Shown: positions 18,945-60,295, counted from the stretch's first letter. The stretch: 64,000 bases of DNA from Thermoanaerobaculia bacterium (GCA_963781065.1 CAWAET010000017.1:90805-154804); one strand, 5' to 3'. Notes: generated by a model not told the origin, from the letters alone. Translations and numbers: made by a program.

Positions 18945-18953
18945 GAGAGCGCG

Positions 18954-23949: not shown

Positions 23950-24169
23950 CGAGCCATCTCCCCGCCCGGCCGGGTGGTGACGGCAAGCCGGCCGGGCACG
24001 TAGCCTCGCACCTGCCTCGAGACAGCATTCCCGCGCGAAGGCCGGGGCTCGAACGCCCCGGGTCCGGAGAAAGCCTCTGGACCGCGGGGCTGCTGAAGGG
24101 CTCGAGGTTTCGGATACGGTACGGCTACCCTGGGAGGCTAGAACGGCCTCCAGACGGACGGAGGACACC

Positions 24170-25970
<1,801 letters not shown>

Positions 25971-26031
25971 CCGGCGCGCTCAACGGATGCAGCCCGCCGG
26001 GGCGCTCGAGCAGGACCGGCTAGACGGGAGC

Positions 26032-34221: not shown

Positions 34222-34467
34222 TCAGTCCCCGGCGAGCTTGCGCTCGAGTTCCTCTAGCGAGACCGTCGCTTCCCCTCGCCGGTCCTCGATCAGCTTCCAG
34301 AGCTCGGAGCTAGTCTCCAGAACCACGGTTTCCCAATCCTGGCCTTCTACCCCGACGAGGACTGCGGCCGGCTGGCCGTGCCGCGTGACCACGACGCGGT
34401 CGTCCTGCGCGGAGTCCACCGCCTTCTTGACGCTCTTTTGAAGGTCTCGCACAGTGACTGTCTTCAT
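34222..34467 (-). CDS. Type II antitoxin, Phd/YefM family
   Basis: 81 aa, MKTVTVRDLQKSVKKAVDSAQDDRVVVTRHGQPAAVLV... Overlaps the toxin stop by 4 nt. Confidence 0.65.
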   Translation of the reverse strand: MKTVTVRDLQKSVKKAVDSAQDDRVVVTRHGQPAAVLVGVEGQDWETVVLETSSELWKLIEDRRGEATVSLEELERKLAGD

Positions 34468-34769
34468 CGGATCTCCTCCGTCGTGAGGTGCGGCGGCTTC
34501 CGCCTCACGGCCCGCACGAACACCCGCCGGTCCTCCTCGGCGACATCGTAGAAGACGCGATAGTCGCCGACACGCAGCTGCCAGATCGGCGGCACCGCCT
34601 CGAAGGGAGGTACCAGCTTGCGCAGCTGCTTGAGGTGTTTCGTGGGCCTGGTCGGCTCATGGGACAGCTTCCGCTCAATCTCGTCCAGGATCCTCTGGCG
34701 CTCGCGGGCGCGTAGCTTCTTCACGTCCTTGACGACGCTGACCGCGAAGCGAACTTCGTACACGCACAT
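34464..34769 (-). CDS. Type II toxin, RelE/ParE superfamily
   Basis: 101 aa with ...WQLRVGDYRVFYDVAEEDRRVFVRAVRRK. The toxin gene precedes the antitoxin (reverse order). A palindrome lies immediately upstream. Confidence 0.7.
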   Translation of the reverse strand: MCVYEVRFAVSVVKDVKKLRARERQRILDEIERKLSHEPTRPTKHLKQLRKLVPPFEAVPPIWQLRVGDYRVFYDVAEEDRRVFVRAVRRKPPHLTTEEIR

Positions 34770-34802: not shown

Positions 34803-35150
34803 GCCGGCTACCGGAAGCCCGCGCCCACTCGGGCTGGGCGGGCCGGCGACTCAGACCAACTGGCCCTGTCGAAGGGAAGACGCTCGTAGACCCCGGAACG
34901 AAGCGAGGTCAGGATCTCGGGCACCTCTTCCTCGGCGGCCAGGAAGAACCAGGCGGCGAGGACGAACTCGGGCTGCCAGGTGGCCAGGCCGGGCCGGGCC
35001 CTGGCGCCTAGTCGGCACCTAATCGGTAGTTGCCACCCCGCCGGGTGGTGCCTGCTTCGTCATCGACAACCTAGCCTAACCAAGCTACCTGACACGCAGG
35101 AGAGTTGCGAGTTCTCCTGCTTTCAAATGCCGGCTTCTGAGGACCAACCC

Positions 35151-37454
35151 ATGACCACGAAGGTAACTGCAATCCAAAGGAAAGTGCTCGACGCCCCGGT
35201 GGTCGAGTGCCCCGTGCTCTCCGGAACGGCGCACGATGCCTTGCTGGTGCTGACAGAGACGACACTGCAGGCGTTTGACACGAGCCTCCGTCTGTGGCCG
35301 AAGTGGACGCACAAATTCCCCGCCGGTGCCTGCCCCAAGGGCCTGACGGTGTCGAACGACGTGGCTTATTGCGTGGCCGGGAACACGCTCTACGCCCTGC
35401 ACGTCGACGACGGGACGAGACCGAAGGAATGGAAAGAAGGATTCTTCAAGAGCACCTCCGGCAACGACTTCTTGCCCCCGGTCGCGCATGAAGGCCAGGA
35501 CCACATCTATGTCATCGACGAAGGGGGCACCGTCTACAAGGTCTCACGCGACTGGGGAACTGACCGCGGCTCAGCCGGCTGGCAGGTGACTCCGCAAGCC
35601 GGCCTGGTGAACTGGCCGCCGGCCACCGACGGCACCTGGCTCTACTATCAAGTCGATCACTACCTGCTGGCCATCGACTTGGAAAGTGGTGCCGAGCAAT
35701 GGCGCTTGAATCTGAAGGAATACGATGACGCATCGGACGGGTGGACAGCCGCGTCTCCGCTGATCGCGTGGCAAAGGAGAAGCGAAGGATACATGAGTGT
35801 GATCCTGCGCGACGACCGCTCCTTCTGCTGGATACTCGTGACGCGGAGTGACCTGAGCACCAAGAAGCTACCAAGCTGCTTGACGACTTTGACAGACGGC
35901 GAGTCGAGGTCTGCAAAGGTCCTCCATCTACGGCAGGAGGCTGGCATGGCAATATGCCATCCCCCAGCAGGACAGCCTGTCATCGACCCTAGTCCGTGGG
36001 ACTTCTCGACAGCCCTATTCTCATGGATTCCTCTCGATGAACCGCAAAAAGTCAGTCCGATCGGGTGCCCGTGGTACACCGAACCGCGGTCATGGCGCCG
36101 CTTTGCCGGCAAGAGCCTTGGAACCGCGCTGTACGGCGCGGCAAACCCTCCCGCGAAGGCACCGCCGACCTTCCTGCTGGCCGTCGACGATACCGTCCAA
36201 CTCCGGCGCACCGATCACCTCGCTACCGTGATCGGCGAGTACACGATCGACCTGCAGCGCTCCCATGGCCCGGTTTGCAGTGGCGATCGCAAGGTCTACA
36301 TGACCGGGACCGCGCTCGTAGATGGAAAAGAAGCCACTTTTGTGTCGGAGTATGTCGAATTCTCTCCCGACCCCAAGGCGCCTGGCCTCACGACCTGGAG
36401 GAAGATGGACCTCGGCACGCCCTCGGTTCCCAAATGGTCGGAGTGTGCGTTCGCTCACGCCAAGTTGCCCAACACAGGCAACAACGAGAACTGGACCCGC
36501 GTGTTGATAGTAACCACGTGGGATGAGTGGGGAGGAAGCGTCGAGGTATGGCGACTAGATCAGCTTGAAGTGTCGCAACCCGTACCGGGCGGCTTCAGTG
36601 GGCCGATATCCGCAGGTGTGGGTGTCTTCGAGAGAGAGGTTGACGGGAAGACCTTTCTACTGGCCCCCGATTCGACATACAACACGGTAACCGTAGCAGA
36701 GCTGCCATCCCGGTCGAGCACGACATTGCAGGTGACGAACCCGGCCGCCATCTGCATCGACGACACTCCTGAAGGAACTGCCTACATCGTCCAAGACTCC
36801 GCCACGGTCAAGCTCGAGCTTTCCGGCGATCCCGCCAGTTGGAAGAACCGGCACACGATCCCGACGGTAAAGGAATCGATCGCGATTGCCGTCCTGCCGT
36901 GCCTATCTTGCGGGGATCATGCGCCCCACATCATCAGCCGCACGGGTTCCATGACCGCGGACTTCCCCGAGTGGAAAACGTTTTCTGTCGATCTGGGCAT
37001 GAGCCACCCCTTCCGGATCGCCGGTACCGGTTGCCCACCTTGGGCCGCCTCTCTCTATATCGCCAACCGCCCGCCGATGGCGCCCAATGCCGACTACAGC
37101 GTCCACGTGTTTCAGGTCTCAATGAACGAGAAGGGGGACTCACCCAGCTACCAGAGCGTCAAGACGATTCCGCTCATAGGCAGCGACGGCCAGCCGCGCG
37201 CACCCTATGACCTCGCCCTGGTGCCTGGCGGCAAGTGGCTGCTGGTCACCGGACAGCTCGTCCAGGGCCTGGACTATTCGGAGGGCGCTACCGGCGAGAT
37301 CTTCGTGATCGACACCCTGAGCTACCAGATCGCGGCACAACTTGCGCCCGGAATAGCAGGGGATCCACAGGGCATCGCCGTGGCCCCCGAACGGGACAAG
37401 GTGGCATGGTTGACCAGCGAGCTGAACGTCGTCGTGGCCGACCTCACCTGGTAA
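35151..37454 (+). CDS. Large beta-propeller (PQQ/BamB-like repeat) protein, 767 aa, no signal peptide
   Basis: ATG after GAGGA. Recurrent TLYALH/IYVIDEGGTVYKV/YLLAIDLESGAEQW blade-like repeats. GC about 60%, lower than the core. 38 bp upstream of the giant gene. Confidence 0.55.
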   Translation: MTTKVTAIQRKVLDAPVVECPVLSGTAHDALLVLTETTLQAFDTSLRLWPKWTHKFPAGACPKGLTVSNDVAYCVAGNTLYALHVDDGTRPKEWKEGFFKSTSGNDFLPPVAHEGQDHIYVIDEGGTVYKVSRDWGTDRGSAGWQVTPQAGLVNWPPATDGTWLYYQVDHYLLAIDLESGAEQWRLNLKEYDDASDGWTAASPLIAWQRRSEGYMSVILRDDRSFCWILVTRSDLSTKKLPSCLTTLTDGESRSAKVLHLRQEAGMAICHPPAGQPVIDPSPWDFSTALFSWIPLDEPQKVSPIGCPWYTEPRSWRRFAGKSLGTALYGAANPPAKAPPTFLLAVDDTVQLRRTDHLATVIGEYTIDLQRSHGPVCSGDRKVYMTGTALVDGKEATFVSEYVEFSPDPKAPGLTTWRKMDLGTPSVPKWSECAFAHAKLPNTGNNENWTRVLIVTTWDEWGGSVEVWRLDQLEVSQPVPGGFSGPISAGVGVFEREVDGKTFLLAPDSTYNTVTVAELPSRSSTTLQVTNPAAICIDDTPEGTAYIVQDSATVKLELSGDPASWKNRHTIPTVKESIAIAVLPCLSCGDHAPHIISRTGSMTADFPEWKTFSVDLGMSHPFRIAGTGCPPWAASLYIANRPPMAPNADYSVHVFQVSMNEKGDSPSYQSVKTIPLIGSDGQPRAPYDLALVPGGKWLLVTGQLVQGLDYSEGATGEIFVIDTLSYQIAAQLAPGIAGDPQGIAVAPERDKVAWLTSELNVVVADLTW

Positions 37455-37492
37455 CCAGTTCCGCAGAACTCCGAAGCCATAGAAAGGAACCC

Positions 37493-40400
37493 ATGAGCAA
37501 AGCGAGTACCGGCCCTTGGAAGAAGTCCTTCATCACCGAGTCCAGGAAACTCAGCACCGCGCCGCACATAGCGGGCGACGTGCTCGTCGTATCTGGCGCC
37601 AACCACCTCTACGGAGTGAGCATCTACGACTCCGCGAACGTCTGGCAGCATTCGGTCACGGCGCCCGTTACCGACCTCTCCAGCGCCGGCGGTACGGTCT
37701 TCTTCCTGGGAACTCCCGCTGATTGGGGTGGGGATGACAACCCGTTCGTGGACAACATCCTTGTCGCGATCGACGCCGGCACGGGAACGGTCAAGCAGGA
37801 GTGGCTGACGGCCACCAAGGACATTTCCGACCTGCAAAGCCCGCGCGTGGAAGGCGGTGTGGTTCTGATCAGCACCTCGGACGGCGGGCTCTATGGATTC
37901 GACAGCCAGACTGCCGACCAGCTCTGGATGACGAGAATCGGGGAGGGCGCGACGCCCCAGCACCCGAGCGTTGGGCACGGCGCGGTCTTCGCCTTCGCCA
38001 ACGACAAGCTCTATGCCGTCAACGTCCGCAGCGGCCAGCAGCGCTTCTGCTTCGACGGCGACGGCGATTCGTTGGCCGCCCGATCCGCCGCCCTGGTCGG
38101 AGACGGCCTGGTCATCGTCAGCGGCCAGGCTCACCTGCACGCCCTGGACTGGAACACGGGAGAGGCCGTTTGGAAGATCGATGTGCCGGCCGGCCAGACG
38201 TGGAACACGCCAGTTGTCTCCTGGGACGGCGGCTGCCTGTTCGTGACCAGCACCCAGGGTCATGTGTACGCTTACCCGCTCGCGGCCGACGAACGCGATG
38301 CCCTGCGAAAGGCGACCGGCGAAGCCCACTTCTGGAACAGCACGGTCGACGACCTGGCGAGATCTTCAAACCTCTCGATGACCGACCCGGCCGCGCAGGC
38401 GCCGATCCTCGAGGAGGACGTCACCCTGGTGGACGTGGCCACCGGCCGTCTGAGGAAGGGCAGCAGGGTGTTCGTGCCGGCAAGCAGCGCCGCCATGGGA
38501 GCAGTGTTCGTCCTCGATCTGACGATCGACGGCAGCCGGGCCACAGACGAGAAGTACGCCGTGGAGCTCGGCTCGCACGTCGAGGTGCAGGACCCGCCGC
38601 GGGACAAAGCTCCGGCTCCGGCTGTCGCCAACGGCACGGTGTTCACCTCCTCCCGCAGCGGCGAGGTGACCGCGACCTCCTTCGTCGAGACCACCGCGCC
38701 GTTCTTCAGCGGAAAACCGAAGGTGACCGTCCCCGAGTCCGATGACTACCTGCTAGGCGCCGGCCCCTTCAGCGTCGAGGCCTGGGTGCGCACGACCGCC
38801 GGCGGCACCGTCCCGTTCCGCTCCCCGACAACCGCCGGCAAGACCGGTTTCCGCCTCGAGGTGGTCAACGACGCGTTTTTCTCGACAACCCAGACGCCGA
38901 GCGCTACGGGGACGGGCGCGTGGTCTTCTCGCTGGGCTCGGCAGAGACGTCCGCCGCGACCTCACCCGTCGCCTCGATCCTGCTCTTCGCCCAGTCGTCG
39001 GCGACTCCCATCGCCGACGGCCGCTGCCCCTGGCCTCATCCGCAAAGGCGACGAAGTCGAGATCTTCGTCGACGGTACGAGCCTGCCGGTCGACACCATG
39101 CTCCACCTGTCCCTGGTGCCCGAGGAGCACCGGAACCAGCTGCCGCCCAATCTGAGTGTTCTTTCCCCCTTCGATCTTGCCGCGCGACCTGATCGTCCCC
39201 GAGGTGGACTCGCCCGAGGCCCTGATCATCGGCGGCGACAGCCCCTCCGATCCCGTCTTCGAAGACGCCGATGTCAAGGGCTTTACCGGGCTCATCGCGG
39301 ACGTGCGCCTGTGGAGCACGCCTCTCGGTGCCCGCCAGATTCAAGACCGCGCGAGCAAGGAGCTGAAGGGGAACGAGCCGGGCCTGCTCGGCGACTGGCC
39401 CCTCAACCAGGCGGAGCCCAAGGACTTCAAAGACCTCTGCCACCACGACCGCAAGGTCGACTCGGCCACAGGAGTCAGCCTCAAGCCGACCAACCTGAGC
39501 CTGGACAACAGCCTCTTCCCCTACCTGCTCGACAGCGTCACGGCGGAGTGGCCCAACAAGGAACGCTGGATCGCGCGCGGCGAGGACGCGCCCCGTGGTC
39601 GCCCGGCCGCCTGCGGCGAGGTGCTGGCCTTCACCACCGACCAGTGGCTCTACGCCATCGATGCCGTTCACGGCACACGCAGATGGGCGCGCGAGCTCGC
39701 GTCGCCGAGCGAGCCGGCGTCCGACCGAAAGACCTTCTACGTCACGTCGGGCACGAAGGTCGTCGCCGTCGACGCCGAGACTGGCGGCAGCCCGTGGCAG
39801 GCCATCGACCTGAGTGAGCAGAAGCCAGCCTCCGACGTACCCGCCGCCAGCGGGCCACTGCTAGCGGTTTCCAACCGGTGCGTCGTGGTCTCGGTCGATC
39901 GCAAGACGGTCTACTGGCTGGACAAAGGAACCGGCGAGGTCCTGGGCACCTACTCCGCGACCAGCGCCATCCGCGGCGAGCTGGCGGCTCGCCACGACAG
40001 CGTGTACCTCGCGGCCGACAAGCTCTACCGCTTCGCCGACGCGTCCCCAAGCGTCGTGGCGGCCTCGGCCCCCGTCGAGCTTCAGGCCGGCTCCGAGCCC
40101 CGGATGTGCGTCGAGCGCGGCCGGCTCTTCCTCTGGAGCGGCGCCTGGATCGAGTCGCTCGATGCGGGCACTCTGAAGGTGCCGCAGGTCGAGACGGCGA
40201 GCGGTTCCAAGTCCCAGGCCTGGGCACCGCCCAGCGTCCCCGCCGGCGAAGCGGTGGTGGGCCTCGCCGCTTCGGCGGCGGGCAACCGTCTGGTCGCAAC
40301 GACAGACCAAGGTCGTGTGCTGTTCCTGGATTACGGCTCGGGCGCCCAGGTGAGCACCGCCACCCTGCCCGGACTGACGATCCCATACGCCTTTGCGCCG

Positions 40401-43400
40401 GTGATCGAGGGCCAGACGGCCTACGTCACAGGCAAGGGCACCGGAGGCCAGATCCCCGGCGGCGTCTATGTCTACGATCTGGCACACGGGATGCTGCGCG
40501 CCCGTGCGGAGGTTGACTCACCCCCGGTGAGCGCGGCGTACGCCGGCTGCGGAGCGGCATACTTCGGCTGCGACGACGGTGGCCACAGCGACGCCGAAGC
40601 CATGCACTCGGTGGTCTTCGGTCAAAACCTGGCGCTTTATCGGAAAGGCAGCGAAGAGGCGCTCACCGTGCCTGGAGTAGCAGGCAAGTTCGCCGGGGCG
40701 TCCGCCTCGCCGGCGGCCAACGCCTTCGCCACCGGCACCTTCAGCCTCGAGCTGTGGATGAACGCCGCGCCGGCCGGCGACTACGAGCTGCTTTCGCTCC
40801 CGCCCTGGACTCACAGCGGCCACGACTACGGCGGCTTCCGGTTGGCCGTGAGCGGTGGAGGGCTCGTTGCCGACTTCCTCGCCGCCGGGTCGGCGCGGCG
40901 GTTCACCAGCATCGACACCGGGTTGACGGATCGGGCGTTGGCACCACGTGGCGGCGGCATTCCGAACCGGCGCCGACGGTCAACAACTTTGCCACCTCTT
41001 CGTCGACGGAGCGAAGCTCGCCAACACCAGCTACGAGGACTTGCAAGGCGTACCCGAGCCGGTGCAAGAGCCGGAGATCACCGTCGGAGGCAGTGGTGAC
41101 TCGACCTTCCGCGGAATGCTGGACGAAGTCCGCGTATGGAATACGTGGCTTCACGACGCTGAAGTGGCTGGGCGCTGCAACGTCAGGCTGTGCGGCGACG
41201 AGCCGGATCTGCTCGCCTGCTGGCGTTTCGACGATGCCGCGGTACTCGACGCCTCTCCCAATCAGCTCGGCCATGACCCGGTCGGCCCCCTGAGCCGCTG
41301 GCTCACCGACCTGAGCTTCGAGCAGCCGCGCTACCCGTTCCTGACCGCTTCGACCAAGGCCGGCGAGCTGGTCACGGCGCCCCTTTCCGAAGGCCACGGG
41401 CGAACCATCACCTCGGCCACCTTCACCACCACCATCACCGCGCGCCGGGCCGACGGTACGCCGAGGCCGGAGACAGAGCTCACAATCGACATTGCCAAGC
41501 CGGCCTCGGGAGAGATCCAGGTCGCGAGTGGAGCGACCAGTGCCGGCGGCCACGATGGCTGCACGACCTATAGCGCCAAGGCGGGAACCGACGGGCGGGC
41601 CGTTCTGCGCTGGAAGATCGAGGGAGTCGATTCGCACAAGCCGGTGGCCTCGCCGGTCCTCGAGGTCAACGCCGACTTCATGTACCCCAACGAACGCTTC
41701 CTGGTCAGCTCGGTCCGCGAGAGCCAGAGGCACGTTACGCTGCCGCCGCCGACGCTGACCGTCAAGTCCGCCATGCTCCAGGACTACGACTGGGCGCCCG
41801 GGGACACGCTCGGCACCAAGGGTGCAAACGGCGAGGTCGTTCTCCAGCCGGGCGTCGACATCACCGCGATCCGCACCACGATCACGGCGCTCTCGGGCGA
41901 CGGCAGCCCGCTGCCCGGCGAAGACCTGGAGATCTGGGCCGACGACCACGTCACCGTCGAGTGCCAGGGGACCGCCTATCCGGTCAATAAGAGCAACTCG
42001 GTCAAGCTCAAGACCGGGCACGACGGCACGGTCGTGCTGGTGATCCCCGATAAATCGACTCCCGATGGCAACCTCCTCGACGTACCCACGCTCCAGGTCC
42101 GGGCGGGGTTCATGCCGAGGAGCGCGCGCGTCGTCTTTGGCCCGGCCGAGCAGGGCCACAAGACCCTCTCCCAGGTCACTGGGGATCAGGTGGCGGGCAG
42201 GGCGAAACTCACCGCCGACCGGCCCAACCGGACTCCCCTGGTGCCGCAGGAGATCGCTAAACAAACCGACTCGAGCGAATCGGTGGCGAAGGCCTTGAAC
42301 CAGATGGCTCGGCTGACTGCCCAGCACGAGCCGCAAGGGACGACTCATGCCGGCGGCAGCGGAACGCCGCTGTGGTCGGGCGCTCAGGGCGACAACCCCG
42401 ACCTGGCACCGCCGGACGCCGTGGCGTCGATCCTCAAGGCGGCCCATCAGCGCTACCGGGCGCCGATCACGCCCGATTACATGTCGGCCAGGCACTTTGT
42501 CGTGTCCCTGGATGGCATGACCATGACCTATACGGAGTTCCACAGCGCAGAGGACCTCGACGCTCATCTGAAGACCAAGCTGGGCAAGACCTACACCGAG
42601 CTGACTCGGGACATCGCCTACGGCGGCCCCGACGACCCCGCCGGCGGCTGGTTCAAGAGCCTCAAACATCACATATCGAGTGCTTGGCACTCATTCAAGC
42701 ACGGCGTCACCCAAGCCTGGAACAAGGCCAAACACTTCGTGGTCAAGACCTGGGACGAAGCCAAGAAAGACCTCAAGCAGGTGGCGCATTTCGTGGAGGT
42801 GACGGTCGCCGACGACCTCAATGCGATCGGCAAGTGGGTCATCAAGACGGTCAAGGACGTCGTCACCCATGTGGTGGCCTTCCTCAAGAAGATCGGGACG
42901 CTGATCAAGGACGTCATCAATTTCCTGCGGGCGCTGTTCGATTGGCCGGTGACCCTGGAGATTCACGATGTGCTCAGGGAAACGATCAATCAGAACCTCC
43001 AAGGACTGAAGGCAGATCTGCAGAAGGTCCTGCCCCAGGAGGCAAAGCGCGCCTTTGCGGACGCCAAGAAGGCTCTCGACAAGGCACTCGGCGCAACGGG
43101 CAGCGGTGGTGGCGGCGCCCTGAGGGGTTACGGGCACCAGGCTTCGGGAACCTCGGCAAAGGTGCTCTCCCACGCGGGCAGCAACAAGTCGCACTACCTC
43201 CACCACAAGATCCGCGAGCACGGGCACGGCCACAGGTCGGTGCCTCGCGACCCCTTTCGTCAGGCGCCGACCGGAGACCCGCCTTTCGGAGAGATCGGCG
43301 CGCTCACCAGCCAGGGTGACCTAAACCTCAACCAAGCCTTCCAGCAGCTGGTCGGCGACCTCCAAGCCCTTCTGGATCAGCCGGGAGGCCTCACCGCGCT

Positions 43401-44466
43401 GACGCCTCACGAGCTTCTCTCGTTGGTCGAGGACTTGCTGACTCTCCTGCTCGATCTCGCCGAAGATGTCACTCTCGCCATCATGTACATTTGCGAGCTG
43501 CTCGTCGCTGGAATCAAGGACCTGCTCAATCAGGAGATCCACATCCCGTTCATCTCGGATCTCTATAAACTGATCACCGGCGGCGATTCGCTAACGATTC
43601 TCGACGTGCTTTGCCTCCTGGTGGCGATCCCGGTGCACCTCGTAGGTGCCGTGATCGGCTTGCCGAAGTTCGACAAGGGAGAGTTCAAGAGCGCTGCCGG
43701 GAGCAACGCTCTGTTCGGTAACAGCCAGGATGCGGACTTGGCGGCTCGCCAGAGCTTCGGAGCAAGTCAAACAGAGAGCGTCTCGGCCGCCACCAAGTGG
43801 TGGGACGTCAGCCACCTGATCTTCGTGTTCTTCAACGGCCTTCTATCGGGAGCACAGGACATCCTGCAGGGGAACATCAACGCCGAAGACCCGGAGGAAA
43901 CCGGCAATCAGGCCAAGGAGGAGGTGAACGTGGGAACCGGCATGTTCCTGCTCGGCCTGGCCTCTCACATCACCGCCATCTTGGCGCAAGTCAGCTTCTG
44001 GATCGTCTGCGGCCAGATCGGCAGAGGCAGTAGAATCCGGGTCGTCCGGGTTCTCGAGTTCACGCCCTCCGTCCTCCACGCGGGGGCCATGGTCTTCGGC
44101 GTGCGAAGCCAACTCGCGGGCGCCGCTCAGACCTACGGCAAGGTCTCCGTAAAGGGCCTGGGCAAGGTGCCGAAAGAGCCGCTAATGAGCCTGGTCGGTC
44201 TGGCGGCGGTCCTGGCGTCGATGGTTACCACCCTGGGGCACTGGGACCAAGAGGACGGCCAGGACCGAGCGGAGGGTTTGATCACCCTGGTTTCGGGCCT
44301 CAATCTGGCCTTCACTTTTCTCATCTGGGGGCCGGTAGCGCTGGCCTCGGAGGTTGACGGCGTTCCGACCTCTCCCCTCGCCAAAGGTGCGATGGATTTC
44401 GCCGTCTCCAGCGTCACCGCGCCCGTGGTTCACCTGATGGCAGGCTACGGCAAGGAAGTCCTGTAG
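37493..44466 (+). CDS. Giant (about 2320 aa) multidomain protein: beta-propeller, LamG/ConA-like, second beta-propeller, second LamG, bacterial Ig-like domains, and a C-terminal helical domain with 5 hydrophobic helices; reading frame broken at least 4 times
   Basis: Three overlapping ORFs (37235-39817, 39156-41099, 40948-44466) plus a short third-frame piece (38920-39192) splice into one continuous sensible protein. The frame changes are at T5 (38876-38880), C4 (about 39026-39030), C5 (39166-39170) and near 40920-40935. LamG hallmarks: FSVEAWVR, EIFVDG, FTGLIADVRLWS, GRWHHVAAAF, LFVDGAKL, GMLDEVRVWN. The C-terminus 43590-44355 has five 20-30-aa hydrophobic segments. Confidence 0.6.
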
Positions 44467-44502
44467 CGCCATGAGCCTTGGCCTGAGGCCAGGCTTCTCG
44501 GC

Positions 44503-45189
44503 TCATCGGTTGCGGAGTGCGCAGAGGAAGCCATAGGCCCGGCGCGGGTCGAGGATGTAGTCGAAGGGCACGCGCGCGTGGCCGCTGTCACCCCAGGCCG
44601 CGCCCATTGAGTTGCGGGCCACCAAGGCCGCCGAGCGTTCGTCGTAGCCCACGGCGGTCATCGCGTGGCTGCGAACCGGAAAAACATCGACGGGAAGAGG
44701 CAGCAGCCCACTCCCGCGGATCCCTCCGGCCTCGAAGACGTGGACGTTGGAGCCTGTGAGGCGCAGGCAAAACAGGAAGGGGCGCTCGTCTTCGAGGCTC
44801 GCACGTAGGATCTCCTCCCGCTGCTTCAAGGGCTCGAGGCCGAGGGCTTCGTCAGGGCCGGTCAGCGCGTAGGCGCGCGCCGGTGGTTGTTGCCGAAAGC
44901 GATCGGGCTCGTAGGGCCACAGCCGCTCGGCGCATAGACCATATCGCTCTAACGCCCGTACCGCCTCGGACGGGCGGATCGGCATATTGTGATTCTGGTT
45001 GCCGCCCAGCTTGCGGGCGTTGTAGTAGAGGAAGAGCGCCGAGGGGTCGAAGGCCTCACCCGCGCCGTCACCAAGCGATCGGGCCCCCTCCCACCAGACC
45101 AGATCGGTGACGGCCAGCGCCAGACAGGACTCGAGCCCCTTCTGGTCGCGGATGCAACGAAAACGGGAACGCAGGTCGACGGCCGACAC
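44503..45189 (-). CDS. Papain-like cysteine peptidase (C1 family), minimal mature domain, no pro-region and no signal peptide
   Basis: IRDQKGLESCLALAVTDLV (Gln/Cys of Q..C box), SHAMTAVGYD (His), ARNSMGAAWGDSG (Asn). Convergent with the giant gene, 37 bp apart. Confidence 0.65.
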   Translation of the reverse strand: MSAVDLRSRFRCIRDQKGLESCLALAVTDLVWWEGARSLGDGAGEAFDPSALFLYYNARKLGGNQNHNMPIRPSEAVRALERYGLCAERLWPYEPDRFRQQPPARAYALTGPDEALGLEPLKQREEILRASLEDERPFLFCLRLTGSNVHVFEAGGIRGSGLLPLPVDVFPVRSHAMTAVGYDERSAALVARNSMGAAWGDSGHARVPFDYILDPRRAYGFLCALRNR

Positions 45190-45191
45190 GC

Positions 45192-45758
45192 TCAGCCTCC
45201 GACGCCCGGCCGGGTTGCCGGCCCCTTTCCGGGCCCCGAATACCTCCAGCGGTTTTTCATCAGGAGCAGCAGCACGATCCGCTCCCGCGGACCAGGATTG
45301 ACCACCTCGTGGGGCAGCGTATAGTCGAAAACCTGCACCTCTCCTGCGACATAGTCTCGCCGTGCTCCGTCGACGATGATTTGAGCGCCGGGGTCGGCCT
45401 GGAGGCAGAGCGACGCCGTGACGTGGGGCTGATGGTGCACATGGCGGCGAATCCGCGCCCCCGGCGCGAGGGCCGAGAAGGAACAGGCCAGAATGCCGGA
45501 AGCTCGTTCCATCGTGGCGGCCGTCGCCGGAGCGAGCGTTCTGTTCCTCAGCAGCAGAGCCTGTGGCACCACCCCCCGGTCCTCTTCCTCGACCCGTAGG
45601 GGCAGCGCCCTCCAGGTACCGGCAGCGGCGCGGTCGTCATTGACCGTCAGCATACGGTCGCTCAGGGCCAGCGCTTCGTCTCGCATGGCCGCCCAGCGCT
45701 CGATGAACGGAGCCAGCTGGGGATATGCCTCAGGAGACTGGTACACCGCGTAAGCCAC
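45192..45758 (-). CDS. Aspartyl/asparaginyl beta-hydroxylase-like 2OG/Fe(II) oxygenase (cupin), soluble
   Basis: ...ILACSFSALAPGARIRRHVHHQP...VQVFDYTLPHEVVNPGPRERIVLLL resembles the AspH/LpxO catalytic domain. GTG start is uncertain. 2-nt gap to the C1 peptidase gene. Confidence 0.6.
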   Translation of the reverse strand: MAYAVYQSPEAYPQLAPFIERWAAMRDEALALSDRMLTVNDDRAAAGTWRALPLRVEEEDRGVVPQALLLRNRTLAPATAATMERASGILACSFSALAPGARIRRHVHHQPHVTASLCLQADPGAQIIVDGARRDYVAGEVQVFDYTLPHEVVNPGPRERIVLLLLMKNRWRYSGPGKGPATRPGVGG

Positions 45759-45812
45759 TCTACTACAGTGACTTAAACGAGTCTGGCTAGCTGGAAAAAG
45801 GAGGGAAAGAGT

Positions 45813-45865
45813 TGGTGTCCCCAGCGGGATTCGAACCCGTGTTACCAGCTTGAAAGGCTGGGTGC
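45813..45865 (-). tRNA. Partial tRNA-Glu(UUC): 3' 50 nt only (anticodon arm, variable loop, T-arm, acceptor 3' strand + CCA); att-site-like remnant
   Basis: The minus strand reads CCCAGCCTTTCAAGCTGGTAACACGGGTTCGAATCCCGCTGGGGACACCA. This is collinear with positions 27-76 of E. coli tRNA-Glu (anticodon loop CUUUCAA, T-loop TTCGAAT). No D-arm or 5' acceptor strand (GTCCCCA) is present upstream. Confidence 0.65.
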
Positions 45866-45984
45866 AGAATCCAGCAAGTCTCCCTATTTGAGTGACTTAC
45901 GAGCAGCAACTGAATGGGTGGTGACCTTCTTGGTCACCTACGCTAGCGACTTCGGCGATGGGCAGCAGCGCGTAGCTTTGCCGA

Positions 45985-48646
45985 CTAGCGGGTCCCGGCT
46001 CTGCGCTTGTGGATTCCCTTTACCCAGCGTTCTAGCTCAGCAACATCTGCGGTGAGCTCCTCCGGCTCGGGCACAGGTACATTCTCCGCTGCTGCTTGGT
46101 CGTGGCCGGGAAGCCACCGGGAGGCCTTGGACATTGCGGCCTCCAGCGTCCTGCAGTCCTTCTCGTTGATATCTGAGAGCAGGCCGACTCGGAGCGTTTG
46201 AATGGAAGGGCGGTAGCGTTGGACGACGCCAGCCAATAGGACTTCCTCGAGCGCACGCTCCCACGCCTCGCGGAGTAAGCCGTAGATGTAGATGGCTTCC
46301 TTCTCGTAGACGTCTCGAGAACTCTTCCGGAAGAGCTTCTCTACCGCCTGGCATTTCTGCTTGAGCACGCCAATTCGGTCCTTGACGCGCATGGCGACCC
46401 ACGGGAGTTCCGGTGACGCAACGCCAGCCCCAAGCGCGTCGCTCCTCACGTACTGGTACACGCACTCGCAACCAGCCTCCTCCGCTCCGCCAGCTAAGGC
46501 CAGCACGAAGACGATGTCGTGGGTGAACACTACGACTTGGCGGTGCTGCGCCTCCTGGGCTAGGCGACGTGCCACATTCTCGCGCCACACATGGTCAAGC
46601 GACGATACCGGATCGTCGAAGAGAATGGCCGACTCATCGGAGGCGGTAGCCAGCTCCGCGAAGAACGAGGCAATCGCAAGAGCACGAGCCTCCCCTTCAC
46701 TCACTACGCGATACAGCGTGGCACCGGGAGCACGCTTCAGGACCAGCCGATGGTAGAGGGCACCACGTTGACCCCCAGCAGCTTCGAGCACTACTTCGAG
46801 ATGGGTGAAGCCGATGCGTTCGAGCTCCGTCCGGAAGGCACCTGCCAGCTGGTCCGTGACAGCCCGCTTTGTAACATCCGTACTCTTGCGCGTAATGTCC
46901 CGCGTGTTCGTCTCGCGAAGACAGAGGCTGTACGCGGCTAGCTGCTTCTTTCGTTCGATCTCGGCAATGACCGCGTCCGCCCCCTTCCCGAGACTCTCCC
47001 TGGCGGAGAGCTCGCGAATCTCGCCATGGAGCTGTTCGGCGGCCGCCTGCGGTTTCTGGCCGGCCAGTTCGGAGCTACGGGCCTGCAGCGCAGCACTTTC
47101 TTCGTGGATTAGCGCTGCAAGCCCGGCCTGCAATGGCGGCAGACCAGCCGGCATCTCCGAGCCCTTGTCGAGAGTCACAACAACCTCTTGCTGGCGTTTC
47201 TCGCTGCGGCAATGAGCCCCGCGGCCTTGCTAGCCAGGGCGGTGTTCTCTAGGCGGAGTTCGGCCAGCTGGTTCTCTGTGGCTTCGTGGCGGTCGGACAA
47301 GTGCTTGAGCTCGAGGACTGAGCGCTGCCACGACACCCTCTCCTGGTCCACACTCTGTTGCAGCGTTGACCCTACGTAGTCCTCGAAGTTGCTCGAGCCG
47401 CCTCACGGCGGCGGGAGCCAGGGCCTGCTGGCAGAGCACACAGTGGGCCCCTTCGTGGATATGTGGAAACGGTTTGCCACGGTACGCACTCCCGGTCGAG
47501 AAGGCCCGTGCCGCCTCCCAGAGCTTTCGCCACAGGGGGCCACCAGACCCTGGAAGCAGGTCAGCCGGAAGAACCTGGTGGCGGTGTTCAGTCGCTGCCG
47601 ACTCTGCTTCTGAGAATGCCGTCCTCCGGTCGAACAGCGAATCCAGTCCCTCGTCACCCACGACGGAGACCACTGAGTCCACGTGCCTTGCGAGTGCCTC
47701 GACACGCTCTCCTCTCAGCCGCAGGGTCGCTGCACAGTCTCTTCGGGTCCTGTGCTCTTAGGTCGTCGAGCCGTTTGCGTAACTCCGCGAGCGCACGCTG
47801 TTCTTCCTCTGCGAGCGTGCCAAGGGAACGTACCCGTTCTGGCTGCGTGAGTGAACTCAGCGAGGCAAGTAGCTTCGCCGCCTCAGTACCCTCCGGAAGC
47901 TCAGGAAGGGCGTTCCGCTGAGCCTCAAGGACTCGCTGTTCCCGTTCGAGGATCCGCTTGACCGCCTGGCAAGCGTTGGAGAGTCCGTCAAAGAGGTCCA
48001 AGCCGAACGGCCGGAACGCTACGTCGGTCTTCTCCCGCAAGTACACGCTGGCGCAGTGGGTGTCGAAGACACTCACGTGGCCGAGCGCATTGTCAGGCTC
48101 ATCCTGGTCGGCCCACGCGAACTCCTTCTCTTCGTCTCCCGATCTGAACGAGATCGTCGCCGCCGGCCGGGCCGGCGCTTGGCTCTGGAATACATTGCCG
48201 AGAATGCTCTCAGCTCCTCGCGCGCGGCAGGCCCGCTTCAGTATGCGGGTATACCCGGACTTTCCGGCAGCGTTCGGTCCGTAGACAATCGTAAGGTCGG
48301 GGCCGAATTCGATCTGTTGCCCTGCCGCGAGTGCGTTTACGCCGGCGAGGTGGGTTAGCGAAGATAGGCTCGTTGGCGAAGATCCCGGTGTCCTTTGTGG
48401 GAGGTGACGCTTCTCTAGAGGATGGGCCACGGCGACTTCTGGGTCGGCGAGGCCATGCTCCGCTTTGCAGAGACCGGCCAACTCCTCGGCATCTTCTTGG
48501 CCGGGCTCTCCCTGGGTGACTAGACGCCGGAGGGCATCTCGTTGCCAGGCTGGAAGAGACGCTGACCAAGACAGGATCTCAGCGAGTACGTCCACGGTAG
48601 ACGGCCTCGTCTCTCCGGGTCGCGTTGGTTCCTTTGGCTTCCGCAT
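45985..48646 (-). pseudogene. Rad50/SbcC-like ABC ATPase with CxxC zinc hook (RloC/PrrC-like candidate anticodon nuclease or related defence ATPase); disrupted by a frameshift (about 47655-47682) and an in-frame TAG (47230-47232)
   Basis: N-terminal piece: Walker A IVYGPNAAGKSGYTRIL. Middle piece: coiled-coil with HCVLCQQ. C-terminal piece: signature-like VSEGEARALAIA, Walker B AILFDDPVSSLD, H-loop VVVFTHD, then a roughly 190-aa C-terminal domain containing WLPGHD. Confidence 0.55.
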
Positions 48647-48727: not shown

Positions 48728-50437
48728 CTACTCTTCCGACTCCGCGGTAGCCGCCTCCAGGGCTTCGAAGTACGGCAGGAAATCCGCCCAGATGCGACCT
48801 GCCAGCCCGGCGTCGACGACCTTGACGTTAGGCACGGGGGATTCCTGGCGCCAGACCTTGATGATCAGTGCTGCGCCGGGCCTGAAAGCCTCCGGGGGAT
48901 ACTCGTAGGCGCCGAAGAAACCGATGTCGTCCATGCTCTGCAGGCCCGCCTCCATGCTGACGACCTGAGCGATGCGGCCCGGGTGGATCGGTTGCACGAG
49001 GGTCTGGCCTCGATAGAGCTCCATCCTCTCGAAGTCGGTCTTGAACCTGTAGCGGGTGGGGACGCTCGGCCCGGCGAGTGCCACCGCCCAGGCGGATCCG
49101 GTCGTCATGCGTATTTCAGGAACGGCCTGCACCACGACCACTGGGCGGTAGTCTCCGGCATAGCGGCGCCATTCGTAGAAGTCGCCCGGATCCGAGACTT
49201 TCCTTGCGTTCGCCTTCCTCCTGGTCCTCTTGTTGCGGGTCCTTGCCGCGGCCTTCTCGACCTCGATCTCCAGTGCCGCGATAACCACCGGCGTCATGAA
49301 CTCCACATCGATCTTGCCCGCCTCCAGGTGGTAGAGATTCGGTGTCAGGTTCTTCCTCTGGGCGAGCACGCGCAGCTCTTCCGCGGGAAAGGTGAACGTC
49401 GACTCAATCGGCAGCCTTTCCAGCGGCGGCGGCGAACTCTCGCCCAGGCCGGCACGGGCCTCCTCGAGCACCGCGGCAGCGAGGTGGATCCTGACAATTC
49501 CCGACACGCCCGGGCCGACCCTGCCCGACCCTATGCCGAATGTGTTGACGCCGATCACCCGCCCGCGCGAATCGAAAAGGGGGCCACCGGAGTTCCCAGG
49601 GTTTATGTTCACGTCGCTGTAGATGGCTCCCTGCTCCACCTTGCTTACCAGGCCGCTGGTGAGAATCGTTTCCGTCACCAACGGGCTGCCGATGGCAACG
49701 ACGCGCTCTCCGACTCCGAAGGACGGCCGCTCTGGAGTCTCGCCAGCGAGCTCGAGGGCGCGCGCGTTCTTCACGGCGACCGGATTGACCTGCAGCACCG
49801 CCAGATCATTGAGATCATCCTGCGCCACGAGCTTCGCCGAGTACTTGTTCTGCTTGTCGACCTTGACCGCCAAGTACTCCGAGTCGGCCACCACATGGTG
49901 GTTCGTCAGCACCAGACCCGCTTCGGCATCGACCAGGAAGCCACTGCCGTGCCCGCCCTCGGCGGAGATCTTGAAGACACTGTCCTTGAAGCGGCGGAAG
50001 ATGTCGCCCTCGTCGAGGGCCACGCTCCGCTCGACTGACGTTTCCAGCTCGACGACCTCCGCGTTGTCGTTGGACAGCTCCACCACCGTGCCACCTTCGG
50101 CCGGTACTTCGAAGGCGAGCTCCCAGCGATAGCGCGCCCCCTCGAACTCCACCGGCGCCCGACTCGAAATGACGTACCGGCCGACAGGCAGATCAGCCTC
50201 CGCCTCGCCGGTGAAGCCGGTTGTGATCTCCGTGGGGCCACCGTCGCCGTCTTGCGGCCGGATCTCGAAAGTCTGCTTGGGCACGGGCCGCAGCGTTAGG
50301 TCCGAGGCCACAAGAATGACCCGTAGAGTGAGCCTCCCTGACGCCGGCGGTGGGTCCTCACCTAGCATCGGTGAGGCACCGGCCAACGAGAGGATCGCCA
50401 GAATCATGAGAACACACGAGGACTGTTTCAACACCAT
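48728..50437 (-). CDS. Secreted trypsin-like serine protease (S1C/HtrA-like catalytic domain) with N- and C-terminal extension domains
   Basis: Signal peptide MVLKQSSCVLMILAILSLAGA. Catalytic triad context GHGSGFLV...TNHHVV (His), DLAVLQV (Asp), GNSGGPLFD (Ser). The start is Met95 of the ORF. Confidence 0.75.
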   Translation of the reverse strand: MVLKQSSCVLMILAILSLAGASPMLGEDPPPASGRLTLRVILVASDLTLRPVPKQTFEIRPQDGDGGPTEITTGFTGEAEADLPVGRYVISSRAPVEFEGARYRWELAFEVPAEGGTVVELSNDNAEVVELETSVERSVALDEGDIFRRFKDSVFKISAEGGHGSGFLVDAEAGLVLTNHHVVADSEYLAVKVDKQNKYSAKLVAQDDLNDLAVLQVNPVAVKNARALELAGETPERPSFGVGERVVAIGSPLVTETILTSGLVSKVEQGAIYSDVNINPGNSGGPLFDSRGRVIGVNTFGIGSGRVGPGVSGIVRIHLAAAVLEEARAGLGESSPPPLERLPIESTFTFPAEELRVLAQRKNLTPNLYHLEAGKIDVEFMTPVVIAALEIEVEKAAARTRNKRTRRKANARKVSDPGDFYEWRRYAGDYRPVVVVQAVPEIRMTTGSAWAVALAGPSVPTRYRFKTDFERMELYRGQTLVQPIHPGRIAQVVSMEAGLQSMDDIGFFGAYEYPPEAFRPGAALIIKVWRQESPVPNVKVVDAGLAGRIWADFLPYFEALEAATAESEE

Positions 50438-50821
50438 TACGCGCCTCCCTCTGTACTCGAGTCTGCCAGGCTCGAGCGCGAGAGGATGCCTCCTGCCCAC
50501 AGAATCGCCCTCATGCCTTCGAGTTGGCGCCGGCGGAATCAACCGCAATCCCCCTGCCCCTCCTGGTTGGTTTCGACAGACTATGACGTAGGCGAAAGCA
50601 GTGTCGCCACCCTCACGGGTGGCCACACGCCAATATAGGGTCTCCCTACTTTTCGCCGGAGCAGCGCCGAGCACCAAAGCCACAGGCTCTCCCAGCACAT
50701 CTGTGGCGGTCGACACCACTAGAAGCCGCCCTCACACCCGATTCCTCACGACCTTCCGCCCGAAGATCCTGAGGACTCTCGGGCGCATATGAAACCTACT
50801 AATCTGGGCACCTATCTGGCG

Positions 50822-52282
50822 TCAGGGGCACTCAAGATTCGCATCCTTCGAGCGCAGGTTGAACTCTTCGTTCTGGATTCGCCAGACGTTCCGTTCCCCT
50901 ACGAAGGTCAAGACCTTGTTGCCGGTGTCGCTGAACCGGTCCGACCTGTACGCCTGGAGGAACCTGACCCGGTAGCGGCCATCCCCGGCCCGCTCGACGA
51001 TCGGCTCGGAGACTTCCACTTGCACTATGCATCTAGGCTCACCAAACCTCTCGCGCCGACGCCTCTCCCATGTAGCCCGGTCGGCGGGGCCCGCTGGCCG
51101 GAACCCGGCGGCATAGAACGATAGGTACGCCTCGATGTCCTGCTGCGACCAAGCGGCGGCCCAGTCGCGGACGCGGCCGAGAAGCTCGGTCTCGACTGCC
51201 TTCTGCGCCGGCGGCAGCGGTTCCGGCGGTCTGGGCGGCTCGGTGACTCTGTGCGCTCCCGGGCCTCGCTTCCGTTCCGCGGAAGGCGCATCCACCCGAG
51301 CGGCGCCACCCAGCGGACGCACCCAGAGTAGCGAGGTGAAGCCCTTCCCGGTCGAGTCTCGTGTATCTAGGTAGTCGAGGTACTTGCCCTTCCATGGATC
51401 GTTGATGATCCAGATTCTCTTGCCGTCGGTCGCGATGCCCTCGGGGGAGAACCTCTCGGGCTTGGGCCGCGCGTCGAGATTCAGATCGACAACCTCTCGT
51501 GCCTGGCCTTTGTCTTGACCGAGGTCCCAGAAGATCACTCGCTCCTGATTGCGCATCAAGATCAGGAGCAGGCCGCCCCTCGCCAAAGCCAGTCCGTTGA
51601 AGTTGGAATCCTCCGTGACAGCGCCTGAGAGCGAGGTCCAGTCAAGAACCAGAGAGTCCTCATCGAGTCTCGGCGCGCCGACCGCTGTCTTGAAGAGGAG
51701 CGGTCTTTCCTCGTCGTCGCGCTCGAAGGCCAGGTACAGGCTGACTCCGTCGTCACCCACCGCGCAGCCCTCGATGCGGCTGTTGTCAGGGGACCCCTCT
51801 GATTTCGACCCCGGGTAGTGCTCGATGCCCTCTATCTTGACGGCATCCTCAACGACCGCCGAATAGCCGCCCGTCTCGTTGTGCGTGACCTTGATCGTCA
51901 CGACCTGCGGTGTCTCCTCATCCTCGGTCACGGCGATGAACTTCCGCAGCTTCGCGCCACCGTCCGGCAGCTCTGCGAGGCACTCGAAGTCGGGATTGCG
52001 GATGTCCGAACGCGCTATGGGCACGGGCGGGTGCGTCAGTTGCGCGTCACCAACTCCAATGCGCAGCATGCGGCCGGTACCTTCCGCACATTCGGTGCAA
52101 TTCTGGTCGGTGATGGCCCAGAGGGCCTGGCCGCCGGTGTCACCGTCGTCGACCCAGGTGAGCCCGGAGATCTGGTAGTCCCCGAGATCCTCCCCGTTGG
52201 TGCCCTTGACCCACTGTCCGTCCTGCGGGCTCGCCGTCAGCAGAAGCGCCAACGGAACCAGTGCCAGGAACCTGCCGATCAC
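50822..52282 (-). CDS. Secreted hypothetical protein with C-terminal NTF2-like (DUF4440/SnoaL-like) domain
   Basis: Signal peptide MIGRFLALVPLALLLTASP. The C-terminal 120 aa (DWAAAWSQQDIEAYLSFYAAGF...VRFLQAY...) is NTF2-fold-like. Confidence 0.5.
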   Translation of the reverse strand: MIGRFLALVPLALLLTASPQDGQWVKGTNGEDLGDYQISGLTWVDDGDTGGQALWAITDQNCTECAEGTGRMLRIGVGDAQLTHPPVPIARSDIRNPDFECLAELPDGGAKLRKFIAVTEDEETPQVVTIKVTHNETGGYSAVVEDAVKIEGIEHYPGSKSEGSPDNSRIEGCAVGDDGVSLYLAFERDDEERPLLFKTAVGAPRLDEDSLVLDWTSLSGAVTEDSNFNGLALARGGLLLILMRNQERVIFWDLGQDKGQAREVVDLNLDARPKPERFSPEGIATDGKRIWIINDPWKGKYLDYLDTRDSTGKGFTSLLWVRPLGGAARVDAPSAERKRGPGAHRVTEPPRPPEPLPPAQKAVETELLGRVRDWAAAWSQQDIEAYLSFYAAGFRPAGPADRATWERRRRERFGEPRCIVQVEVSEPIVERAGDGRYRVRFLQAYRSDRFSDTGNKVLTFVGERNVWRIQNEEFNLRSKDANLECP

Positions 52283-52440
52283 GGGTGCCTCCCTTCTCGG
52301 CCCGCTGGCCAGCCTCGCGAGCCGCTCAACAGTGGCTGTCGCCAGCCTAGCCCTGACCTTAGCGCCAGATCGCCACCCGGACGGGTGGCTGTTCCGCGTG
52401 GACAGATGTCATGCGTTTCGGGCAGGGATGGCGCGGCAGC

Positions 52441-60042: not shown

Positions 60043-60295
60043 TGGGAACTCTCCCTTTTTCGCGATGGCGACATCCCTGTCGCCAAGTTGACAGAGGCGC
60101 TGCCGGCCTTAACCCGCATTCTTGGAGCCGGCTGCACGCGACGAATCTGGGGAATACTAACTCAGTGCGGGCTCGACCGCGCTCGTGGCGAGGGCCGAGG
60201 GCCGGTCGCCTGATCGCCCGCCAATAGAGGTTCCACCCATTTCGGAACTCAAGAGGCGAAGATTGCCTCGGCAGAATCCGTCCAATCCCATTGAG

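Follow-up and report, generated by a model that had tools for sequence, protein, structure and literature searches.

A stretch of 64,000 nucleotides (nt) from a Thermoanaerobaculia bacterium (GCA_963781065.1 CAWAET010000017.1:90805-154804; hereafter the window, with positions counted from its first letter) carries, between 35151 and 45758, a cassette of four genes centred on one giant gene. The product of this gene (37493..44466, + strand) is, once four changes of frame have been corrected, a conceptual protein of ~2,323 amino acids (aa), in which a beta-propeller, a LamG domain, a second propeller, a second LamG domain and tandem Ig-like domains are followed by a C-terminal helical module of membrane type. 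Upstream lies a gene for a propeller partner protein (gene 1), and a cysteine peptidase and an Fe(II)/2-oxoglutarate hydroxylase are encoded convergently on the other side. Known superfamilies account for the N-terminal modules of the giant protein and for both enzymes. For the C-terminal module, the whole family that it defines and the four-gene cassette, no description was found in Pfam, NCBIfam, PADLOC, the PDB or the searchable literature; a literature search returned only giant LamG/PQQ proteins of DPANN archaea and a review of polymorphic toxins, neither of which describes the architecture of the giant protein. The cassette is a self-contained four-gene unit found in varied genomic contexts in soil bacteria, and the comparison of its loci strongly supports a functional tie between the hydroxylase/peptidase pair and the giant protein. 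Our preferred reading, to which we give a rough probability of 0.4, is that of a large, signal-less binding protein whose C-terminal bundle would insert into membranes after maturation by the hydroxylase and the peptidase in the cytoplasm, and which would in this respect be toxin-like.

A conserved four-gene cassette

The four genes are kept together in six independent loci (L and P numbers denote loci and proteins): the window, a Pyrinomonadaceae metagenome-assembled genome (MAG; L003/L005, DATNBH010000025.1, 71037-94222), L004, L007 from forest soil (with the giant protein P0008), L013 (P0009) and L014 (P0010). In the five loci other than the window, orthologs of the peptidase (45-49% identity) and of the hydroxylase (41-51%) occupy the same position, and the partner proteins are 27-33% identical to the gene 1 product. 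The giant protein itself shows 37-45% identity to the giant genes of L003, L004, L007, L008, L013 and L014. Genes outside the four-gene block are unrelated from locus to locus, so that the block is the conserved unit. In two distant clusters, moreover, Peptidase_C1 is fused to the N-terminus of the giant protein (P0035, 2,545 aa, and P0041, 2,562 aa). These fused peptidases score 22.0 and 37.3 bits, respectively, against a cut-off of 20.7 and are 35-36% identical to the window peptidase, and the fused copy retains the Gln, Cys, His and Asn catalytic residues. An earlier note on this DNA had linked the enzyme pair to the giant gene and had named, as a check, whether the pair would turn out to travel with unrelated neighbours; the six loci and the fusions bear out the link, and the pair is co-conserved with the giant gene instead.

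The peptidase gene (44503..45189, - strand, 228 aa) is convergent to the giant gene and ends 36 nt from the stop of the latter, and the hydroxylase gene (45192..45758, - strand, 188 aa) ends 2 nt ahead of the peptidase start. The convergent pair with its 2-nt gap is as the earlier note described it, and the two genes are probably co-transcribed. The peptidase belongs to the C1 (papain) family and has no pro-region. Its best solved relative is PDB entry 3OIS (deposited as 'Cysteine protease', and probably xylellain of Xylella fastidiosa), with E = 1.9e-16 over residues 4-221 in a HMMER alignment in which the catalytic Cys, His and Asn are paired; it also aligns to papain. Against Pfam Peptidase_C1 (PF00112) it scores 17.7 bits, under the cut-off of 20.7. 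The window peptidase differs from 3OIS in being without the N-terminal extension of the 291-residue chain, its residue 4 aligning to chain residue 61, and in being coupled to a hydroxylase and a giant gene. In an alignment of seven peptidase sequences, His175 and Asn193 do not vary and the catalytic Cys occurs in six, the remaining sequence having been cut short by its gene call; the Gln ahead of this Cys, as read by eye, is conserved. The papain order Gln-Cys...His...Asn is thereby preserved, in keeping with the papain-like peptidase first proposed.

The hydroxylase is a member of the PF05118 Fe(II)/2-oxoglutarate cupin hydroxylases (AspH/LpxO family), with a match to Asp_Arg_Hydrox of 67.9 bits (cut-off 22.6) that spans profile positions 3-152 of 157. 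The LpxO equivalog, with a cut-off of 500 bits, gave 42 bits. His106, His108, His150 and Arg160 are invariant in six orthologs, corresponding to the His-x-His...His motif plus Arg that it has in common with human AspH and LpxO. It differs from these two enzymes in its length of 188 aa, in having no hydrophobic anchor segment that could be seen by eye and in having no TPR domain according to Pfam, and the description of a soluble AspH-type enzyme can stand. Judging from the catalytic and metal-binding residues retained in all orthologs compared, both enzymes are predicted to be catalytically competent. Small C1 peptidases are also encoded on plasmids of Bacillus, Sinorhizobium, Streptomyces and Deinococcus, with 26-32% identity to the window peptidase. 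The Streptomyces region, the only one of these examined, has unrelated neighbours and no hydroxylase, so the pairing of the two enzymes looks specific to the giant-gene clade.

Gene 1 (35151..37454, + strand) had been proposed as a + strand gene and is indeed an intact open reading frame (ORF), with ATG at 35151, a stop at 37454 and GAGGA upstream resembling a ribosome-binding site. Its 767-aa product is an exact database record, and an identical copy is present in an independent Logan contig (L002). The N-terminus carries a weak PQQ-type beta-propeller, the score against the Pfam model PQQ_2 (25.8 bits) being slightly short of the cut-off of 27.6. The earlier note had called this gene paralogous to the giant gene; propeller-repeat similarity to the N-terminus of the giant protein does exist, and it is the only similarity, so that at 24% identity over 132 aa (E = 0.004) the term is too strong. 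Homologues of gene 1 adjoin the giant gene in L003/L005, L004, L007 and L013 and lie downstream of it in L014, and the partner proteins range from 421 to 872 aa across loci. The longest, from the Pyrinomonadaceae locus (L003, 3416-6034), is an 872-aa protein with two full LamG domains before a region like the gene 1 propeller; the partner therefore has domain types in common with the giant protein.

The giant protein and its family

Two propellers, two LamG domains and Ig-like domains had been read from the giant gene, and each of them was recovered. Beta-propeller 1 (PQQ_2/BamB-like; 37541..38378, + strand) scores 65.7 bits against PQQ_2 (cut-off 27.6) over residues 17-183 and beyond. LamG-like domain 1 (38750..39410, + strand) bears three of the four frameshifts (~38881, 39028-39041 and 39158-39161). 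Its sequence runs on through frames 2, 1, 2 and 0, with a frame-1 piece that aligns to P0010 (NPDAERYGDGRVVFS...ADGRCPWPH) and a frame-0 piece that aligns to P0008 and P0010. Beta-propeller 2 (PQQ_2/BamB-like; 39612..40596, + strand; 51.4 bits over residues 153-294 of the ORF 39156-41099) precedes LamG-like domain 2 (40761..41233, + strand), which bears the fourth frameshift (an extra base at 40932, in a GGG run); the two stretches are contiguous in the homologue P0002. The partial matches of the uncorrected LamG pieces to Laminin_G_3 (PF13385; 22.1 bits for LamG1, and 24.8 bits) are under the cut-off of 27.6 because the frameshifts cut the domains. Removing the base at 40932 restores a complete match, with 74.2 bits for the corrected protein and LamG2 covering profile positions 10-151 of 151; intact homologues reach 112-130 bits in two stretches. 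The frame-corrected protein scores 99.4 bits against PQQ_2.

The tandem Ig-like beta-sandwich domains (invasin/MG-like; 41335..42145, + strand) were recognized by structure prediction. The AlphaFold2 model of this region is beta-rich across residues 10-280, with predicted local distance difference test (pLDDT) values up to the high 80s, and Foldseek matched it in the PDB to InvE (5n40, E = 7e-4), invasin (1cwv), integrin alpha legs and the MG domains of alpha-2-macroglobulin/C3. No glycosyltransferase or other effector domain was found in the corrected giant protein or in the relatives with a fused peptidase. The PQQ_2 and Laminin_G_3 domains recall BamB and the names given to relatives in public databases. 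The giant protein is six times as long as BamB, a lipoprotein of ~390 aa that carries a signal peptide; it has no lipoprotein signal itself and reaches at best 53.3 bits against the BamB equivalogs TIGR03300 and NF008351, for which the cut-offs are 285 and 423 bits.

The family is defined by the C-terminal module of ~620 aa (42601..44463, + strand). Amphipathic helices, a short beta-sheet and long helices with a conserved FLRALFDW motif lead through a Gly/His-rich linker to a hydrophobic helix bundle (~43597-44440). A further conserved motif, IPFISxLYxxITG..LTxLD (IPFxSxLYxxITG..LTxLD across the family), precedes this bundle of ~6-7 hydrophobic helices. Within residues 1981-2283 of the corrected protein, five hydrophobic peaks stand out, with Kyte-Doolittle values of 1.7-2.6 in 19-residue windows; the first helix reaches 2.61, and the remaining helices are mostly moderate in hydrophobicity. 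Modelled by AlphaFold2 with 30 diverse sequences, the module gave a predicted template modelling score of 0.62 and pLDDT mostly of 70-93 over residues 250-620, again as long helices, a small beta-sheet and the hydrophobic bundle. The earlier note had seen amphipathic helices followed by five hydrophobic ones at this end, and this anatomy is borne out by the five hydrophobic peaks and the helical model. Disordered linkers lie at residues ~1600-1700 and ~1870-1950 of the corrected protein. Across 30 relatives, the loops of the bundle are neutral to acidic and none is enriched in Lys or Arg. Family alignments reveal no conserved polar residues of a catalytic type in the module.

A profile made from the last ~620 residues matches 156 family proteins, nearly always starting ~500-650 residues before the C-terminal end, and gives 626 bits with the window protein. 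The C-terminal ~620 aa have no match in Pfam, NCBIfam, the sequences of the PDB or by fold, and the profile retrieved from Pfam and the PDB only weak noise of the apolipoprotein and phasin type, from amphipathic helices. A phage origin of the module was considered and set aside, the best BFVD match having E = 0.11 and consisting of tape-measure proteins of similar composition.

The extent of the family becomes visible only by exhaustive HMMER searching. With the C-terminal 1,053 aa (tandem Ig-like domains plus C-terminal module) as query and representatives at 50% identity as targets, 1,113 clusters match at E <= 1e-3, 297 at <= 1e-10 and 36 at <= 1e-30. Word-indexed searches do not show it: a single-sequence search returned the giant protein itself and one partial homologue from a Thermoanaerobaculia MAG, the matches of a full-length profile were mostly LamG and PQQ proteins with no relation to the family, and a C-terminal profile gave 3 matches. 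A scan for related loci with 5 sequences found only 1 genome locus and 2 metagenome loci. The partial homologue joins propeller 2, LamG2, the Ig-like region and the helical part in one unbroken stretch. The best HMMER matches are intact proteins of 2,254-2,354 aa with 39-47% identity (P0008, 47% over 1,053 aa), many of the leading matches have ~2,200-2,400 aa, and the corrected window protein aligns end to end with 22 homologues. Because intact co-linear homologues exist, the giant region is ancestrally one gene, as the earlier note had supposed, and not a row of separate unrelated genes.

Two classes can be distinguished, a long one of ~2,200-2,900 aa (propeller-LamG twice, then Ig-like domains) and a short one of ~1,000-1,500 aa (propeller and/or LamG). 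Carriers identified by name are Acidobacteriota (e.g. Pyrinomonadaceae), one Eremiobacterota MAG and one cultured Variovorax, and the names under which relatives are filed ("BamB", "WD40-like", "LamG-like jellyroll") derive from their domains. The only member found in a cultured organism, WP_162584046.1 (1,666 aa) of plasmid 2 of Variovorax sp. PBS-H4 (L016, NZ_LR594676.1, 4810-9810 and 11824-12831), has two LamG domains, one propeller and the C-terminal module; 2 kb further downstream there is a fragment of an RHS repeat-associated core and, after it, an IS30 transposase. At L006 (GCA_022842355.1, JALHPS010000002.1, 7521-13435), the gene of the short-class protein P0194 (1,144 aa) directly adjoins the stop codon of one that encodes a 369-aa ILEI (FAM3-like) protein, upstream of which a protein with four Ephrin_rec_like repeats is encoded; both of these domains are of a eukaryotic extracellular type. 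Downstream of the distant member P0018 and in the same orientation (L011, 16663-22232), there are genes for a 713-aa protein with a weak match to patatin-like phospholipases, for two small proteins with a phage-tail 'Collar' domain and for an F5/8 type C protein, which may be a different accessory set.

Possible modes of action

Under the preferred reading, the giant protein would fold in the cytoplasm, where it would be hydroxylated by one enzyme of the pair and cleaved or trimmed by the other. It would then exit by a non-Sec route, presumably Tat in short relatives and possibly a lysis-type release for the long form, after which the propeller/LamG/Ig array would bind a surface ligand and the C-terminal bundle would insert into a membrane. 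The export signals of the family bear on this course of events. In the long class, all 52 members lack both a signal peptide and a twin-arginine (Tat) motif; in the short class, 14 of the 91 members, with the same C-terminal module, have textbook Tat signals. When the first 35 residues were scanned for hydrophobicity, no convincing Sec signal came up anywhere in the family. Reliance on Tat alone agrees, if indirectly, with folding or modification in the cytoplasm and with hydrophobic helices that are buried ahead of export, and would not be expected of a constitutive polytopic membrane protein. An insertion-type tail is also suggested by the loops free of a Lys/Arg bias, by the moderate hydrophobicity of most helices of the bundle and by the absence of conserved polar residues of a catalytic type.

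A number of points weigh against this reading. Secretion, membrane insertion, toxicity, hydroxylation and cleavage are all steps that we infer. Read directly, the N-termini of all four window proteins are without a signal peptide, as had been noted before for gene 1 and the giant protein, and the flanks of the loci compared share no genes for secretion or lysis. Among characterised bacterial enzymes, the hydroxylase is closest to LpxO (27% identity), which acts on lipid A and not on protein. The distant members L008, L011 and L015 and the short forms L018 and L006 are without the enzyme pair, so the enzymes are accessories of one clade, and the family does not depend on them. Confidence in the AlphaFold2 models is moderate (pLDDT 60 and 69). 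The giant gene is disrupted in the sequence as it stands, and its frameshifts could be real; the site at ~39040 is no clean homopolymer event and may involve the loss of ~4 codons.

Nearly as likely, in our view, is that the giant protein is a permanently membrane-anchored binding protein of the surface or periplasm (an adhesin, receptor or sensor), with the module serving as a polytopic anchor or channel, the array facing outward, and the hydroxylase and peptidase maturing the protein before or during assembly. The strongly hydrophobic first helix (Kyte-Doolittle 2.61) speaks for an anchor, as does the place of the module at the C-terminal end in nearly all relatives examined, where an anchor would be expected. 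LamG, invasin-like Ig domains and PQQ propellers are typical cell-surface modules, and the Tat signals of the 14 short relatives put their N-terminal domains outside the cytoplasm. The long class fits less well: with signal peptides in 0 of 52 members, a ~1,700-aa N-terminal ectodomain could not cross the membrane by known routes, and in none of the loops of the 30 relatives is there a positive-inside bias.

The comparison with described systems also bears on the preferred, membrane-inserting reading. No family-defining match of sequence or fold was found to Tc, RHS/YD or MARTX toxins, large clostridial toxins, or colicin or diphtheria-type translocation domains, and the claim that the architecture lies outside the described toxin families has thus held up; the giant protein appears toxin-like in its logic and would be a member of no described toxin family. 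TcdA/TcdB and MARTX are large signal-less AB-type toxins with their own cysteine protease and a hydrophobic translocation region. The likeness to them lies in a length of >2,000 aa, the absence of a signal peptide, the combination of receptor-binding repeat or beta domains with hydrophobic helices and, in some members (here P0035 and P0041), a cysteine peptidase within the polypeptide. The differences are that no domain matches theirs in sequence or fold, that the peptidase here is of the papain type C1 whereas theirs is of the C80 type, and that the domains come in the opposite order, the hydrophobic module standing at the very C-terminus. Tail-anchored Tat substrates, an established class whose known tail anchors are single helices, resemble the 14 short relatives in pairing a twin-arginine signal with a C-terminal hydrophobic element. 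They differ from the family in that the window protein and the 52 long-class members have no Tat motif and in that a ~600-aa module stands in place of a single-helix anchor. The wider claim, that the cassette represents a previously unrecognised class of giant membrane-inserting proteins of soil bacteria, folded in the cytoplasm and matured there by a dedicated Asp/Asn (or lipid-type) hydroxylase and a papain-like protease, exported free of Sec (through Tat in the short forms) and attacking or attaching to other cells by a C-terminal membrane-insertion domain of a new type, is one that we hold to be doubtful.

Frameshifts and surroundings of the cassette

Of the two tandem + strand genes that the earlier note had described, gene 1 stands, and 37493-44466 proved not to be one ORF. 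The region consists of three overlapping ORFs in three frames (37235-39817, 39156-41099 and 40948-44466). Intact homologues tile these frames co-linearly in tblastn and without gaps in the query: residues 9-557, 554-1120 and 1121-2291 of P0008 map to frames 2, 0 and 1, with residues 1120 and 1121 falling at 40931 and 40933 in different frames, and the LamG1 core of P0010 pairs with the frame-1 piece from 38881 to ~39040. Four changes of frame thus separate the window from an intact gene: a passage from frame 2 to frame 1 at ~38881, where one base is missing in a T5 run; from frame 1 back to frame 2 at ~39028-39041, with one extra base and possibly ~4 codons missing; from frame 2 to frame 0 at ~39158-39161, with one extra base in a C5 run; and from frame 0 to frame 1 at 40932, with one extra G in the GGG run.

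A real pseudogene, in which slippage mutations would have inactivated the giant gene and left a decaying remnant of the cassette, we consider unlikely. Such decay would agree with the crowding of four frameshifts into 2.1 kb of one gene, with the possible loss of ~4 codons at ~39040, with the NCBI annotation, which gives only the last 1,134 aa of the giant gene as a protein, and with the state of the adjacent gene for PDC-S06 (a PADLOC candidate single-gene defence ATPase; 45985-48646, - strand), which is broken as well, as might be seen in a decaying mobile region. PDC-S06 is split by at least two frameshifts: the ORF 47654-48646 covers profile positions 4-289 (E = 1e-70), the ORF 45985-47178 covers positions 484-857 (E = 7e-115), and the middle (~47180-47650) reads in other frames. 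Yet a core metabolic gene elsewhere in the window, that of the GTP-dependent phosphoenolpyruvate carboxykinase (PEPCK; 23981-26023, + strand), is frameshifted too, near 25290, with the ORF 23981-26023 holding PEPCK_N and PEPCK_GTP positions 1-137 and the ORF 25260-25970 holding positions 134-354 (E = 4.5e-94). With both PEPCK and PDC-S06 affected, assembly error becomes the likelier cause of the frameshifts in the giant gene, and from the PEPCK frameshift the rate of indel errors in the contig comes to roughly one per 8 kb.

The giant gene itself speaks the same language. The stretches between the frameshifts hold no in-frame stops and are 37-44% identical to P0008, vs 45-48% for the rest, which we take as undiminished conservation, and gene 1, the peptidase gene and the hydroxylase gene are all intact. 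Independent Logan assembly of run ERR12040029 gave two contigs that match the window at 34979-38080 (100%) and at 41051-45854 (3 mismatches, no gaps). The three substitutions are in L001, and one of them alters the peptidase (P0005 vs P0006). The two contigs break at 38080/38081 and 41050/41051, flanking a 3-kb stretch of 68-70% guanine plus cytosine (GC), and all four frameshifts lie within this uncovered interval (38081-41050), the part of the giant gene with the highest GC. Taken together, the four single-base frameshifts are probably sequencing or assembly errors and not a true inactivation. Misassembly through internal DNA repeats was also considered as their cause and rejected, there being no direct repeats >30 nt in 34900-45900. 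For the window as a whole, the practical message is that at about one indel per 8 kb gene calls need frame-aware checking.

The base composition does not set the cassette apart. A GC of 58-62% had been claimed for it; the computed value for 35151-45758 is 65.2%, with lower values confined to gene 1 (61.5%) and to the 3' third of the giant gene (64.0%). The right-hand 41 kb of the window have 65.4% and the first 23 kb 71.3%. Since the locus equals the 41 kb around it in GC, the argument for a low-GC island is weak.

It seems very improbable that the cassette serves in intracellular conflict or in abortive infection against phages, with the array sensing an invader, the module disrupting the cell's own membrane and the protease acting as activator or co-effector. 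This would suit the lack of signal peptides on all four proteins, the occurrence of the cassette in unrelated contexts, its neighbours in the window (a ParE/Phd pair on one side; PDC-S06, a trypsin-like protein and a TraI-like gene on the other) and the general frequency of C-terminal membrane effectors and protease partners in defence systems. Against it, the genes that flank the cassette or its relatives in L003, L004, L013, L014 and L015 have no part in defence, Tat export signals occur in relatives that carry the module, and no NTPase, nuclease or usual signalling domain is found among the domain matches of the cassette proteins. A known defence system is likewise rejected: PADLOC-DB 2.0 gave 0 families for all four cassette proteins and matches only among the neighbours (PDC-S06 and a protease domain).

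To the left of the cassette (34222-34769, - strand), a ParE/RelE-type toxin gene (34464-34769) is followed with a 4-nt overlap by a Phd/YefM antitoxin gene (34222-34467), a toxin-first order that is the opposite of the usual arrangement. To its right, at 48728-53544 (- strand) and 60161-61231 (+ strand), there are genes for a 663-aa Trypsin_2 protein, a 528-aa Cds6_C NTF2-like protein, a TraI_middle protein and an IS200-like Y1 transposase, which suggests that this side is mobile or variable. A NuoF/HoxF-like flavoprotein (Complex1_51K, 2Fe-2S, 4Fe-4S) is encoded at 15701-20396 (+ strand), where the GC of the window is high, upstream of the large subunit of a [NiFe]-hydrogenase, in what looks like a NAD-linked bidirectional hydrogenase cluster.

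In public metagenomes, the searched region of the giant protein has counterparts in at least 1,100 clusters, and the annotation of family members goes no further than "BamB" or "LamG-like". The coupling of the giant protein to a hydroxylase and a protease, together with the peptidase fusion, provides a concrete and testable hypothesis of a maturation pathway. If the hydroxylase does act on protein, this would be a case of Asp/Asn-type hydroxylation in bacteria, which seems to be rarely documented. The existence of Tat-bearing and signal-less members of one family raises the question of how very large folded proteins with hydrophobic helices are handled, and experiments on it could start from the plasmid copy (WP_162584046.1) in the cultured Variovorax sp. 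PBS-H4.

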